From assembly GCF_988243305.1 (NCBI RefSeq), contig NZ_OZ547136.1: 64,000 nt of DNA. One strand, given 5' to 3'. Both the position numbers and the translations under genes were made by a program. The notes under the pieces were generated by a model, which saw nothing but the letters and a program-made list of their open reading frames with translations, was not told the origin of the DNA and searched no databases. Shown here piece after piece: positions 9,084-12,545 of the stretch. Within the stretch, counting starts at the first letter, position 1. Every line of letters starts with the position of its first letter.

Positions 9084-9434
9084 ATGACTCAAAACTATGA
9101 ACTGATTGTGAAAGGGATCCGCAATTTTGAGAATAAAGTTACGGTAACTTTAGCGTTACGGGACAAAAAACGCTTTGACGGTGAAATTTTTGACCTGGAC
9201 ATCTCGCTGGACCGTGTTGAAGGTGCCACGCTGGAGTTTTATGAGGCAGCAGCCAGAAGGAGCATCAGACAGGTCTTCCTGGATGTTGCTGCCGGGTTAT
9301 GTGAAGGGGATGAGCAGTCGCCGGAAAAGCGCCCCGTAATTTTAGAGGCGCAGAATGTATGGATAACCTACAAAGGAAAGCTACCGGGAATAATTACTGG
9401 TTCTCTGAAGACTCCTCCGGAATCACAACCTTAA
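9084..9434 (+). CDS. Hypothetical protein between holin and endolysin
   Basis: 116-aa ORF, hydrophilic, no recognised domain. Confidence 0.45.
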   Translation: MTQNYELIVKGIRNFENKVTVTLALRDKKRFDGEIFDLDISLDRVEGATLEFYEAAARRSIRQVFLDVAAGLCEGDEQSPEKRPVILEAQNVWITYKGKLPGIITGSLKTPPESQP

Positions 9435-9497
9435 GTCACTGACCGGAACAGATAAACCTGTCCGTGGGCAGAAACCGATAAATCCTGATAAATATCC

Positions 9498-10031
9498 ATG
9501 AACACCAAAATCAAATACGGCCTGTCGGCTGCCGTTCTGGCGCTGATTGCCGCTGGTGCGCCTGCGCCTGACATTCTCGACCAGTTTCTGGATGAAAAGG
9601 AAGGTAACCACACCACGGCATACCGTGATGGCGCGGGTATCTGGACCATCTGCCGCGGTGCCATCCTGGTGGATGGCAAACCTGTCGTTCCGGGCATGAA
9701 GTTGTCGAAGGAAAAATGCGACCGGGTTAACGCCATTGAGCGTGATAAGGCGCTGGCATGGGTGGAGAAAAACATCAGAGTGCCATTGAGTGAACCCCAG
9801 AAAGCGGGGATCGCGTCATTCTGTCCGTACAACATTGGCCCCGGTAAGTGTTTTCCGTCGACGTTTTATAAACGAATTAATGCAGGTGATCGCAGGGGAG
9901 CGTGTGAGGCGATTCGCTGGTGGATTAAGGACGGTGGCAGAGACTGCCGTATTCGCTCAAATAACTGTTACGGTCAGGTATCCCGTCGTGACCAGGAGAG
10001 CGCGCTGGCGTGCTGGGGAATCGACAGATAA
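9498..10031 (+). CDS. SAR endolysin (lysozyme, glycoside hydrolase family 24 type)
   Basis: N-terminal signal-anchor-release segment (GLSAAVLALIAAGA) followed by a T4-lysozyme-like core (EGNHTTAYRDGAGIWTICRG). Confidence 0.85.
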   Translation: MNTKIKYGLSAAVLALIAAGAPAPDILDQFLDEKEGNHTTAYRDGAGIWTICRGAILVDGKPVVPGMKLSKEKCDRVNAIERDKALAWVEKNIRVPLSEPQKAGIASFCPYNIGPGKCFPSTFYKRINAGDRRGACEAIRWWIKDGGRDCRIRSNNCYGQVSRRDQESALACWGIDR

Positions 10032-10124
10032 GCAGAATATTTTGCTAATAAATGACGTTGGCCAAGGCGGACGGGTAACACGAAATCCTGCGAACTGGCA
10101 AAATGTAAGTGAATAAAAGTAAAA

Positions 10125-10160
10125 ACCCCGTTTGTTGGCAGCAAGCGGGGTTTTGTTTTT
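10125..10160 (+). terminator. Rho-independent terminator downstream of the endolysin
   Basis: CCCCG...CGGGG stem followed by TTTTGTTTTT. Confidence 0.55.
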
Positions 10161-10225
10161 ATGGCAGTAAGCTATGGGAGGCTGCCTTGATTGATTTTAG
10201 CAAACTGATTAGGGAGTTGCGACTC

Positions 10226-10321
10226 ATGATTAGTCAATTACCAAACTGGAAATTTTTGCTGGTCTGGAGCATCCCTTTTTTATGGGTAGTATCCCAGTTA
10301 ATTGTGGCAATTAAGGGGTAG
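10226..10321 (+). CDS. Small hydrophobic peptide 1 (31 aa)
   Basis: MISQLPNWKFLLVWSIPFLWVVSQLIVAIKG, one predicted TM helix. Confidence 0.35.
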   Translation: MISQLPNWKFLLVWSIPFLWVVSQLIVAIKG

Positions 10322-10323
10322 CT

Positions 10324-10455
10324 ATGTCAGACAAACTCATAACGCCGGCAAAGGTCCTGTGTGTGATTGTCGGTATTTCATTTTCACTAATGCTGGTTGC
10401 TCTTTTTCTGTCCCTCGCCTGGGTGATGTTGTCTTCGTCGGGGCTGCTGGGGTGA
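10324..10455 (+). CDS. Small hydrophobic peptide 2 (43 aa)
   Basis: MSDKLITPAKVLCVIVGISFSLMLVALFLSLAWVMLSSSGLLG; starts 2 nt after the peptide 1 stop. Confidence 0.4.
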   Translation: MSDKLITPAKVLCVIVGISFSLMLVALFLSLAWVMLSSSGLLG

Positions 10456-10574
10456 CAGTGACTGATGACATCAGCAGAGCGCTGGCTTTTGCTATTAAGT
10501 GGGTGGCTGTTGGTATTGCTGTGTCTCCGATGCTGTATGGGCTGGCAAAACTGGTCATTGCGCTGAAATCGTGA
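10452..10574 (+). CDS. Small hydrophobic peptide 3 (about 40 aa, putative GTG start)
   Basis: GTGA overlap with the peptide 2 stop; ...AFAIKWVAVGIAVSPMLYGLAKLVIALKS. Confidence 0.3.
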   Translation: MTVTDDISRALAFAIKWVAVGIAVSPMLYGLAKLVIALKS

Positions 10575-10585
10575 ACTTTAAAAAG

Positions 10586-10672
10586 ATGAGTGCTGAACTT
10601 ATTCGGGCAATGGCATTTGCCATTCGTATTGTGGCCATTGCTGTTCTGGTCTGGGCAATCCGTTGGTGGTGA
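10586..10672 (+). CDS. Small hydrophobic peptide 4 (28 aa)
   Basis: [28 protein letters not shown]; shares the AFAI(K/R)xVA motif with peptide 3; stops 1 nt before the Rz start. Confidence 0.35.
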
Positions 10673-10673
10673 T

Positions 10674-11141
10674 ATGAACCGTGTTCTGTGTGTGGTGATT
10701 ATTGTCCTGCTGGTAGCCTGTGGTGTGCTTAGTCTGGGGCTGAATCATTACCGCGATAACGCCATCACCTACAAAGCGCAGCGCGATAAAAAAGTCAGTG
10801 AGCTGAAACTGGCGAACGCGACAATTACTGATATGCAGATACGCCAGCGTGATGTCGCTGAACTTGATGCCAGATACTCGAGGGAATTAGCCGATGCGAG
10901 AGCTGAAAATGAAACTCTGCGTGCTGATGTTGCCGCTGGTCGTAAGCGCCTGCGGATCAACGCCACCTGCTCCGGTACAGTGCGTGAAGCCACCGGCACC
11001 TCCGGCGTGGATAATGCAACCGGCCCCCGACTGGCAGACACCGCTGAACGGGATTATTTCATCCTCAGAGAACGGTTGATGACAATGCAGAAGCAGCTGG
11101 AAGGGGCACAGGACTATATCCGCACTCAGTGCCTGAACTAA
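10674..11141 (+). CDS. Rz i-spanin
   Basis: N-terminal TM anchor followed by a coiled-coil periplasmic domain; directly follows the lysis genes. Confidence 0.8.
10894..11079 (+). CDS. Rz1 o-spanin lipoprotein, embedded in the +1 frame of Rz
   Basis: [20 protein letters not shown] lipobox followed by a proline-rich mature region; wholly inside Rz. Confidence 0.8.
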
Positions 11142-11464
11142 GTTTTGCTGATGCGCCGTATCGTCGCTGTATTCCCTCATTAACAGAGACCGCAGCCCGA
11201 CAGGGAGACTCCTCTGCGCGAGTGTGCGGGGATAATCAAAAACGATACACACCGGGGTTTACCGCGTTAACGGAGCGCGGCGTTGTCCCCTCATAGTCGC
11301 CAGTCCGGTGCGATGGTGGAAGAAACAGGACGATGTGTTACCTCGCAAGCCCTGTTATGTCATGTGTCTGATTTGTGATTTAAGTCGGATAATTGTCGTT
11401 GCCATTAAGCAGAGGATTGATGACCGACAGGGCGGCATTGTTAGAATAAGACTTATTCTTATCT

Positions 11465-11806
11465 GTGCGGGGAATGAAAATGAAAAGAAATCTTCCGTTA
11501 ATTATTTTGTTGTCTTCTCTGGTTATGGGCTGTACGCAACATAAAACAGATATGCCCCGACAGTTGGTTAAGGCATTACCACAATATCCGGCCTATGCAG
11601 CGGCAAATTATATAAAGGGACGGGTTGATGTGAGGTTTGATATTGGTGCTGATGGTACTGTCACCCGAATTGAGTTTATTCGTTCAGAGCCGCACCATCT
11701 GTTTGATGAGCAGGTTGTAAAGGCGATGGCAAAATGGCGATTTGAGAAGGACAGGCCGTGTAAAGGCGTGAAGAAAACGTTTATCTTTAGTCCTTCTGCA
11801 CCCTGA
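11465..11806 (+). CDS. Lipoprotein with TonB C-terminal-like domain (start among ATGs at 11465, 11474 or 11480)
   Basis: Signal peptide with lipobox LVMGC; C-terminal region resembles the TonB_C fold; the domain assignment is by eye only. Confidence 0.45.
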   Translation: MRGMKMKRNLPLIILLSSLVMGCTQHKTDMPRQLVKALPQYPAYAAANYIKGRVDVRFDIGADGTVTRIEFIRSEPHHLFDEQVVKAMAKWRFEKDRPCKGVKKTFIFSPSAP

Positions 11807-11937
11807 TTATTTCATCAGAAATTAATTATCACTCTGTTGTTATTCTGTACATCCCGGCAGGGTAAGTCTTGTTCTGTCGGATATGAAGATGAAATATTGT
11901 TGGAGGACAGTGGGTACCTGCTCCTGTAACCGAACGT

Positions 11938-12138
11938 TCATTTCTCGTTATTTGTCATGCTGGCCGGGCGCAGATGCGTTGCATCTGTTGCCAGCCTTCT
12001 CCTGCAGGCTTCAATAACCCACGCTGAAAAGTTACCGGACCCTTTATGCTCAAGGGCGATGTTGATCTGTTCAATCATGTGATTGGGGAAACGGATATTG
12101 CGGGTTGTGGTTCTGCGGGTACGGTTTTTCGATGACAT
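11938..12138 (-). CDS. Small ribbon-helix-helix (Arc/MetJ-like) protein
   Basis: 66 aa, basic N-terminus then NIRFPNHMIEQINIAL...NFSAWVIEACRRRL; divergent from the HNH gene. Confidence 0.5.
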   Translation of the reverse strand: MSSKNRTRRTTTRNIRFPNHMIEQINIALEHKGSGNFSAWVIEACRRRLATDATHLRPASMTNNEK

Positions 12139-12179
12139 ATTTATTTCCTTTACTGATTGCCATATGACGGGGATTTTAC

Positions 12180-12545
12180 ATGGCTGAGCTTCGTACACTC
12201 CAGAGCAGAATCAAAACACTGAATACCCGACGGGTGAATATTCTGAAGGGTGAACAGCGTCGTGTCAGTGGCAGTGCACGTGTTTCCCTCAAGCGTCATA
12301 TCTGGCTCAGGGACGCCGGGCAGTGCCGTCTCTGTGGTCGTGTGGTTGACCTCTGTGACAGTGAACTCGATCACCGAATTGCACTTCAGTTCGGTGGTGG
12401 TAATGAGGAGACGAATCTCTGGACGCTCTGTACCGAATGCCATCGACAAAAGTCTGCTCGTGAAGCGGCGAGTGATATGCCGGACCCGACGCTGCCGGAG
12501 GTGTCCGGAGGTAGTGGCAGAGAGGACGACATCATCGGACTGTAA
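12180..12545 (+). CDS. HNH endonuclease (terminase-associated)
   Basis: CxxC...DHRIALQFGG...N...CxxCH motif; immediately upstream of the terminase small subunit. Confidence 0.8.
   Translation: MAELRTLQSRIKTLNTRRVNILKGEQRRVSGSARVSLKRHIWLRDAGQCRLCGRVVDLCDSELDHRIALQFGGGNEETNLWTLCTECHRQKSAREAASDMPDPTLPEVSGGSGREDDIIGL

Follow-up and report, generated by a model that had tools for sequence, protein, structure and literature searches.

In the Qin prophage of K-12, whose holin-ydfR-lysozyme set equals the one described here, and in DLP12, the endolysin gene R overlaps the spanin gene Rz and no insert lies between them. In the window, the whole 64,000-nucleotide stretch of contig NZ_OZ547136.1 (assembly GCF_988243305.1) that was analysed, positions 8864-11141 form a lambdoid late lysis cluster on the + strand in which the same two genes stand 642 nt apart. 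What this spacer encodes, and what its products might do during lysis, is the question that the locus raises. The best explanation is a recombinant array of four small genes, here called P1 to P4, for single-pass inner-membrane peptides belonging to three families. The small genes are extra relative to prophages in which R and Rz adjoin, as morons are, and the gene set is real and widespread: databases already list its members as hypothetical proteins, with one of them flagged by ribosome profiling, and it belongs to a known class, the accessory small membrane proteins of phage late operons, and not to a new kind of system.

The small reading frames between R and Rz

The spacer consists of the following elements.

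10032..10121, + strand: conserved non-coding stretch right after the R stop, seen in an alignment of four architectures and present in all spacer classes, Shiga toxin (Stx) phages included
10122..10154, + strand: intrinsic terminator hairpin with a 15-bp stem and a T run (terminator scan; fold -21.1 kcal/mol)
10187..10321, + strand: P1, probably 44 aa, from TTG 10187 with the Shine-Dalgarno (SD) sequence GGGAGG; family phrog_6632
10324..10455, + strand: P2, 43 aa, one transmembrane helix, N-in by charge; SD AAGGGG, free energy (dG) -8.4; family phrog_4906
10452..10574, + strand: P3, 40 aa (GTG 10452) or 38 aa (GTG 10458); moderate SD, dG -5 to -6; families phrog_1115/3246/4493
10586..10672, + strand: P4, 28 aa (ATG 10586) or 33 aa (GTG 10571); family phrog_4493, 3.8e-6

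Much of this layout had been anticipated. The original prediction placed a terminator-like hairpin after the endolysin, which the scan and the fold bear out, followed by four short open reading frames (ORFs) with a single hydrophobic helix each; every one of the four peptides indeed has a 17-residue Kyte-Doolittle window of 1.9-2.8, like the transmembrane segments of Rz and the holin. The tight chaining that it described is likewise present in the sequence and the ORF list: P1 and P2 are separated by 2 nt, the P2 TGA (10453-10455) and the P3 GTG at 10452 form a GTGA overlap, and a single nucleotide separates P4 from the Rz ATG at 10674. Between P3 and P4 there is a gap of 11 nt, which a P4 start at GTG 10571 would replace by a second GTGA overlap with the P3 stop. 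The proposed lengths of 31, 43, about 40 and 28 aa hold as frames for P2 to P4 but probably not for P1, whose 31-aa version runs from ATG 10226 to the TAG at 10321. P1 very probably starts at TTG 10187, because this codon lies 5 nt after the strongest SD of the cassette (dG -10.2), because homologues in Salmonella, Providencia and Cronobacter retain DFSKLIRELRLM upstream of the internal Met, and because a divergent locus, L227, has an ATG exactly at the homologous codon. The resulting 44-aa product, LIDFSKLIRELRLMISQLPNWKF...AIKG, has an amphipathic basic N-terminus and one transmembrane helix.

Searches against PHROG placed all four peptides in families that carry no assigned function, with E-values of 1.3e-12 for P1 (as the 70-aa ORF that contains it), 4.5e-21 for P2, 6.4e-25 for P3 and 3.8e-6 for P4, while none of the four matched NCBIfam. 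Taken with the coding evidence below, these observations support P1 to P4 as genuine small membrane-peptide genes in the lysis operon, whose products would insert N-in into the inner membrane.

Selection was assessed by the ratio of nonsynonymous to synonymous polymorphism (pN/pS) across spacer classes, computed from variant loci, with R, the whole of Rz and the Rz transmembrane segment from the same loci as controls. P3 gave a pN/pS of 0.15, with 14 of its 24 variable sites at third positions, against 1.1 and 3.1 in the other forward frames. P2, whose ORF is intact in all 33 distinct nucleotide variants, gave 0.545 (other frames 0.74 and 1.09), and the controls gave 0.51 for the Rz transmembrane segment, 0.415 for whole Rz and 0.11 for R. 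When the window was compared with L227, at 67-80% nucleotide identity, P1 had a pN/pS of 0.23 (pS 0.52; other frames 1.1-2.4) and P2 one of 0.43 (pS 0.58), with the other forward frames at 0.67-2.5 overall. P4 has too little variation for a selection test, and the class carrying all four ORFs is nearly invariant (6 variable sites in the spacer plus Rz versus 60 in R, among 10 distinct sequences) and is therefore uninformative on selection. Conservation extends to the start codon and the SD. Judged from the aligned loci, the ORFs are conserved in frame, and purifying selection at the protein level is shown for P1, P2 and P3. Because the frames recur in thousands of prophages with frame-specific substitutions, the ORF pattern is far above chance. 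We are confident that P1 and P2 are real translated genes; P4 is weakly supported as a gene.

A ribosome profiling signal has been published for a P2 homologue. XECs191, which lies in the Sp10 prophage of O157:H7 Sakai and whose identity and context as a P2 homologue were confirmed here, is among 465 intergenic ORFs with a ribosome profiling (RIBOseq) signal (Hücker et al., 2017; PMC5597208). In LB medium it had an RNA level of 30.0 reads per kilobase per million (RPKM), a RIBOseq level of 12.6 RPKM, a ribosome coverage value (RCV) of 0.43 and a coverage of 0.55, and it was predicted to be an inner-membrane protein with one helix, listed without functional study (PMC5597208).

Several overlapping frames were considered as alternative genes and rejected. 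The 70-aa ORF that begins at GTG 10109 lacks an SD (dG -1.5) and would have to run across the terminator. A 90-aa ORF at 10302-10574, which extends the P3 frame over P2 and partly corresponds to a 51-aa PGAP call, has a pN/pS of 1.06-1.09 in its P2 region, and a 33-aa ORF at 10465-10566, in the +1 frame inside P3, is open in all variants but lies in one of the non-P3 frames, with pN/pS values of 1.1 and 3.1 and radical changes. An antisense ORF of 73 aa (10337-10558) gives no more than the signal usual for a mirror frame (0.61 and 0.23, versus 0.545 and 0.15 in the sense direction), and it cannot be conserved, since the order of P2 and P3 differs between classes.

A modular family of spacers

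Interruption of the R-Rz junction, which the original prediction took to be unusual, turns out to be common: about a third of complete E. coli genomes have P2 or P3 there. Among 5426 such genomes the spacer has matches in 2077, over its full length in 586; P2 occurs in 1701 of them at up to 11 copies each, P3 in 1853, and P3 together with P4 in 611. PGAP annotates P2, P3 (as 51 aa), P4 and at times the 70-aa ORF containing P1 as hypothetical proteins. A P2 homologue stands directly before Rz in 276 phage records, mostly of Stx-converting phages, in which the order is R, terminator, ant, P2 (48-50 aa) and Rz and the P2 ORF is often unannotated. In Sakai the homologues are ECs_5707 in Sp5 and ECs_1966 in Sp10; they share about 65-70% identity with P2 and likewise lie immediately before Rz, but follow ant instead of P1 and have an N-terminal extension of 5-6 residues. 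No literature was found that names WP_001280935, WP_032140280, WP_042004856, WP_001043230, ECs_5707 or YP_009502601; the small ORFs are unmentioned in the Stx-phage comparative-genomics papers examined, and a preprint on the Enterobacteriaceae microproteome holds no lysis-related text.

From 180 IMG/VR loci having both R and Rz we obtained 22 spacer length classes, all built from the same parts, including the following.

426 nt: P1, P2
478-492 nt: full-length P3, P2
642 nt: P1, P2, P3, P4, the type of the window, with 100 loci
702 nt: P1, P2, P3, P2'
703 nt: P3, P2, P3, P4
about 990 nt: ant, P2
1133-1416 nt: a 231-aa ORF, P1, P2, in some followed by P3 and P4

Most of these classes carry a strong hairpin 80-105 nt past the R stop, built on one of two unrelated stem sequences with compensatory changes within each, and the Stx phages match positions 1-236 of the spacer query. 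Decayed copies also occur: the 604 and 1174 classes have a frameshift in P3 and a cut P4, the 478 class has a frameshift in P2, and P1 is interrupted by a stop in two loci. Recombination breakpoints seem to lie in 10032-10160, where R with its 60 variable sites gives way to the spacer and Rz with 6 in the same loci; the first ~90 nt after the R stop (10032-10160) could be a stable RNA of the 3' untranslated region or a recombination linker for module exchange.

P1 and P2 form a conserved bicistronic pair. P2 is the most widespread of the four and normally the ORF that abuts Rz, and in all fetched contexts of P1 or P2 (IMG/VR loci and phage records) the genes lie just after an endolysin, in three types of cassette: an R21-like lysozyme with a class II holin, a lysozyme with Phage_holin_2_1, and a Peptidase_M15_4 endolysin with Phage_holin_8/3_7. 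L227 represents the last type and lacks Rz, and it has the terminator, P1 and P2 with an identical 2-nt junction. After its P1-P2 pair, at 2776-2889 of that locus, there is a 37-aa ORF, MKRKHWTYRMPRTAAKWALVAILVPFLLTITCQLFC, with a signal-peptide or lipobox-like character; no recognisable spanin follows it, and it may be a truncated spanin or another micro-protein. In a further locus (L228, 2501-2716) the N-terminus is of P1 type (IDFSKLIREIRVM...) but the helix after it is a different one, whose IRWW end lies 1 nt before Rz, from which it follows that the families swap N- and C-terminal parts. Of two deeper relationships that were tried, descent of P2 from a partly duplicated Rz N-terminal helix, prompted by a common VLCV, was rejected (hhalign E 0.16, probability 0.4%, 7 columns), and a single family for P2 and P3 was not supported (hhalign E 0.011, probability 4%).

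P3 and P4, in contrast to such pairings, are true paralogues. The motif AFAI(K/R)xVA that they share had been read as a trace of duplication, and both the profile match and blastp (P4 against P3, 1e-4) uphold that reading; against a full-length member ending in RWW, P4 gave 2e-10 and full-length P3 1e-14. Full-length members of this family have 42-60 aa and the layout M(R)KYKRILLRLT-MKNGLE(L/V)(D/K)AP...A(V/L)AFAI(K/R), then the helix, then an end in ...YGLAKLIIALKS or ...IRWW. Alignments show P3 to be an N-terminally truncated copy of the 48/60-aa MKNGLELKAP...AFAIKW...ALKS family, in the window an ALKS-type copy fused behind P2 at VTDD, and P4 to be a similarly truncated copy of the RWW-ending branch that begins at MSAEL. 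The family is narrow, with only 24 clusters retrieved by a profile from 1.84 billion representative proteins, and tandem copies recur in it, for example a 64-aa and 55-aa pair in L217.

The truncation raises the matter of whether P3 and P4 act as peptides at all. They, and possibly all four ORFs, could be translated spacers that deliver ribosomes to Rz after cargo broke the R-Rz overlap, the peptides being relics. R and Rz do overlap in uninterrupted cassettes, and the distance from the end of the last small ORF to the Rz ATG is 1, 2 or 7 nt in nearly all spacer classes; in the window the last codons of P4, UGGUGGUGA, are an SD-like element for Rz with a dG of -6.2. Moreover, P3 and P4 of the window are without the N-terminal MKNGLE..AP of their family and have weak SDs or none, decayed copies of both are found elsewhere, and the four-ORF class is so nearly invariant that it must be young and unproven by selection. 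Yet a pure spacer would have no need of a conserved hydrophobic helix, the constraint on the P3 protein across classes is strong, P1 and P2 are constrained across genera, and short N-termini of the MSAEL/MNAEL type recur in several lineages, suggesting that the short form is in use. We therefore regard a spacer role as unlikely for the array in general, though plausible for the truncated P3 and P4 of the window, and the chances that these two are functional in their truncated form appear evenly balanced.

Expression and possible roles of the peptides

The promoter scan found no sigma-70-like promoter on the + strand of 10032-10673, the hairpin lies only about 32 nt from the P1 start, and with a terminator standing upstream these features lead us to infer that the array would be transcribed only by Q-modified polymerase reading through the terminator. 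The peptides would thus be made late, together with the holin, endolysin and spanins. Because the SD of P3 is moderate and P4 has none (dG +0.3 at its ATG), these two would depend on termination-reinitiation coupling for their translation. The hairpin is preceded by an A run and could for that reason terminate on either strand.

Four functions had originally been suggested for these peptides: lysis-timing regulators, antiholin-like factors, superinfection-exclusion peptides and type I toxin-like proteins. For P1 and P2 the best fit is a late role linked to lysis; for P3 and P4 such a role is weakened by the tail and head contexts described below. Tentatively, we favour the possibility that the peptides are dispensable, late-expressed inner-membrane modulators of the membrane step of lysis, which would act through helix-helix contacts on holin triggering, on the release of the membrane-tethered signal-anchor-release (SAR) lysozyme, or on spanin action. 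What points this way is association: P1 and P2 are found only after endolysins, in three unrelated cassette types, and the P3 family often abuts Rz or lysozyme. As holins are, the ORFs between R and Rz are small proteins with at least one transmembrane helix encoded next to an endolysin.

There is precedent in LysA of phage P2, a membrane protein encoded between the endolysin gene and the Rz-equivalent gene, which affects lysis timing. LysA and the antiholins (lambda S107, S21-71, T4 RI and LydB of phage P1) resemble P1 to P4 in being dispensable, late membrane proteins encoded in the lysis cassette, and both LysA and the antiholins are thought to tune timing via membrane contacts. However, profile searches give no sequence relation between them and P1 to P4; LysA has four transmembrane helices as opposed to one, and S107 and S21-71 are alternative starts within a holin gene, while P1 to P4 are separate genes. 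A second parallel is the Mu gp25 'releasin', a small membrane protein of a SAR-endolysin lysis cluster that is proposed to act on a membrane-embedded helix (PMC9239132). It differs in its 99 aa, its long soluble coiled part and its place after the spanin genes, whereas P1 to P4 are shorter and precede Rz. The window and the Salmonella loci have SAR-type endolysins, but the P1-P2 pair also accompanies the non-SAR Peptidase_M15_4 endolysin, and blastp detected no similarity between the four peptides and Mu gp19, gp20, gp24 or gp25 (best E 0.087 over 12 residues, to gp25/DUF2730).

A number of observations weigh against a part in lysis. None of P1 to P4 matches a holin, antiholin or releasin profile: PHROG and NCBIfam give no holin match for any of them, though the true holin at 8864-9079 was matched, and the profile searches tied none of them to the cognate holin or to any known family of antiholins. 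The charged hydrophilic tail typical of holins is missing: none of the four C-termini (AIKG, SSSGLLG, ALKS and IRWW) has more than one charged residue. Lysis does not require the peptides, as K-12 Qin has the equal gene set without the insert. The modules are shuffled, duplicated, truncated and sometimes frameshifted; the RIBOseq signal of XECs191 is weak and came from uninduced cultures. Finally, the P3/P4 family is not lysis-specific. Its members stand directly before Rz in E. coli, in prophages of Salmonella (L213-L216) and in a Salmonella remnant that is very abundant (L231), directly before lysozyme in L235 and after a SASA esterase in L217, but also before a baseplate gene (L220), after tail-fibre genes (L224) and after a capsid gene (L234).

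These contexts are what the main rival explanation would lead one to expect, namely that the peptides are mobile passengers of late operons with a function unrelated to lysis (anti-defence, exclusion or another membrane activity) and that the R-Rz junction is only their commonest landing site. At least five kinds of junction receive the P3/P4 family, and its members have a similar setting: in the four loci read (the window, L213, L220 and L224) the gene lies 20-60 nt past a GC-rich hairpin, it ends 0-11 nt before the next gene, and where the end is RWW-stop these codons come 1-2 nt before the next ATG, whichever unrelated gene follows. In L224 the gene sits between two terminator-containing repeat copies, the R-Rz junction accepts other cargo as well (ant and the 231-aa ORF), and the GC content of the small ORFs, at 0.40-0.48, is below the 0.52-0.58 of R and Rz. 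On the other hand, P1 and P2 keep to endolysins even in an unrelated cassette, lysis genes, a small fraction of a phage genome, adjoin the P3 family in about half of its sampled contexts, and purifying selection indicates that the peptides matter, though not for what. We consider the passenger account possible but somewhat doubtful. As to the arrangement in L224, the P3-family gene is at a prophage end between two ~75-nt copies (2390-2470 and 2735-2815) of an element in which a short hairpin and a T run are accompanied by a second terminator hairpin, rich in GC; the hairpin AAAACCCCGGCTG..CAGTCGGGGTTTT has a near-identical counterpart upstream of P1 in L227.

Expression in the lysogen would make the peptides conversion genes of the classical moron kind, for example inner-membrane superinfection-exclusion peptides that block phage DNA entry. 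Lambdoid phages are known to encode small exclusion proteins of the inner membrane, for example HK97 gp15, and like bor, lom and gp15 the genes described here are extra between conserved neighbours, missing in close relatives, atypical in composition and small, with membrane products, much as such morons often encode small envelope proteins. The uninduced origin of the RIBOseq signal also agrees with lysogen expression, but a signal this weak fits spontaneous induction. Classical morons, moreover, have their own promoter and a downstream terminator, whereas here the sole strong terminator (10122-10154) is directly upstream, no + strand promoter is found and P4 runs straight into Rz, chaining the array into the next late gene, so that a lysogenic transcript would also express Rz and Rz1. 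This leaves the lysogen-expressed form of the exclusion proposal disfavoured, and we hold it to be improbable.

Least compatible with the data is a role as type I toxin-like or abortive-infection peptides, which would depolarise the membrane and be held in check by an antisense RNA; we consider it very improbable. The peptides are short and hydrophobic (28-44 aa) and thus like Hok, Ldr, TisB, Ibs and ZorO in size and in having a single hydrophobic helix, the WW end of P4 rather recalling the Ldr C-terminus. A single minus-strand promoter-like site (10330-10301) faces the two-way hairpin, but such sites are not more frequent than chance predicts (2 found against 2.8 expected), and the alternative P1 allele does not retain the -10 box of this one. 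In addition, no sequence match to known toxins was seen, no Rfam family was found in 8000-12500 even at E up to 1, and the genes do not form a standalone locus with a promoter of their own and a long 5' leader but are chained in an operon, unlike known type I systems.

The surrounding cluster and the meaning of the array

The remainder of the lysis cluster comprises the following genes.

8864..9079, + strand: class II (S21/pinholin-type) holin, 71 aa; PHROG phrog_9876/phrog_20, and 'class II holin family protein' in PGAP on an identical gene
9084..9434, + strand: YdfR/DUF1327-family gene between holin and lysozyme; phrog_406, PGAP 'YdfR family protein'
9498..10031, + strand: R21-like lysozyme with an Ala/Gly-rich N-terminal segment; phrog_7 endolysin
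10674..11141, + strand: Rz (i-spanin), 155 aa; phrog_13 Rz-like spanin, 7e-76, PGAP 'lysis protein'
10894..11079, + strand: Rz1 (o-spanin lipoprotein), inside Rz in its +1 frame; an ORF with the lipobox LVVSAC and a proline-rich mature part

The order holin-ydfR-lysozyme is that of essQ-ydfR-rrrQ in K-12 Qin, and the same embedded Rz1 gene is annotated as ECs_1216 in Sakai and rzoQ in K-12. The holin begins with MYQMEK (8864-8875), which is similar to a dual-start motif; that of S21 is MKSMDK. The longer form of the window holin would gain no positive charge, and may therefore be unable to act as an antiholin in the manner of S21-71. The lysozyme is by inference a SAR-type endolysin, and the solved structures to which it is related by sequence include phage 21 lysozyme (3HDE/3HDF) and RrrD (4ZPU). 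Its ATG at 9498, 63 nt after ydfR, has no SD match (dG +0.6), while the sites of P1, P2 and ydfR are strong. On the minus strand a 134-aa antisense ORF (9431-9835) crosses the ydfR/R junction; in PGAP annotation a 90-aa version of it is a hypothetical protein, and in a phage record it bears the name 'DUF1823 containing protein'.

Downstream of Rz, at the place of bor in lambda and Stx phages, 11465-11806 hold a lipoprotein-like gene with a TonB C-terminal domain, whose best PHROG is phrog_1267, labelled 'Rz-like spanin', and whose NCBIfam match is tonB_Cterm; the PHROG label looks mistaken. Upstream of the holin are genes for tRNA-Met(CAT) and tRNA-Arg(TCT) (5100-5352) and for a SASA-family, NanS-p-like esterase (6845-8713). 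This layout of tRNAs and esterase is that of Stx phages, and no stx genes were noticed in the interval.

Lambdoid lysis cassettes are regarded as fully parsed into holin, endolysin and spanins, yet in about a third of complete E. coli genomes and in most Stx-converting phages they contain conserved genes for membrane micro-proteins. Shiga toxin, which lacks a secretion signal, exits the cell when the phage lyses it. A member of the P2 family is present in most Stx phages, and a modulator of lysis timing in these phages would therefore bear on toxin release. More speculatively, and in our view unlikely as a whole, the families could be mobile micro-genes, each consisting of a terminator hairpin, an ORF for a single helix and C-terminal codons that double as the ribosome-binding site of the next gene, in which case P2 would set the timing of lysis and hence both the timing and the amount of Stx release. 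If so, a mobile unit of this kind would colonise the junctions of late operons without breaking downstream expression. Should the peptides prove unrelated to lysis, the unit of terminator, ORF and coupling would still show how small genes spread without harm to their neighbours.

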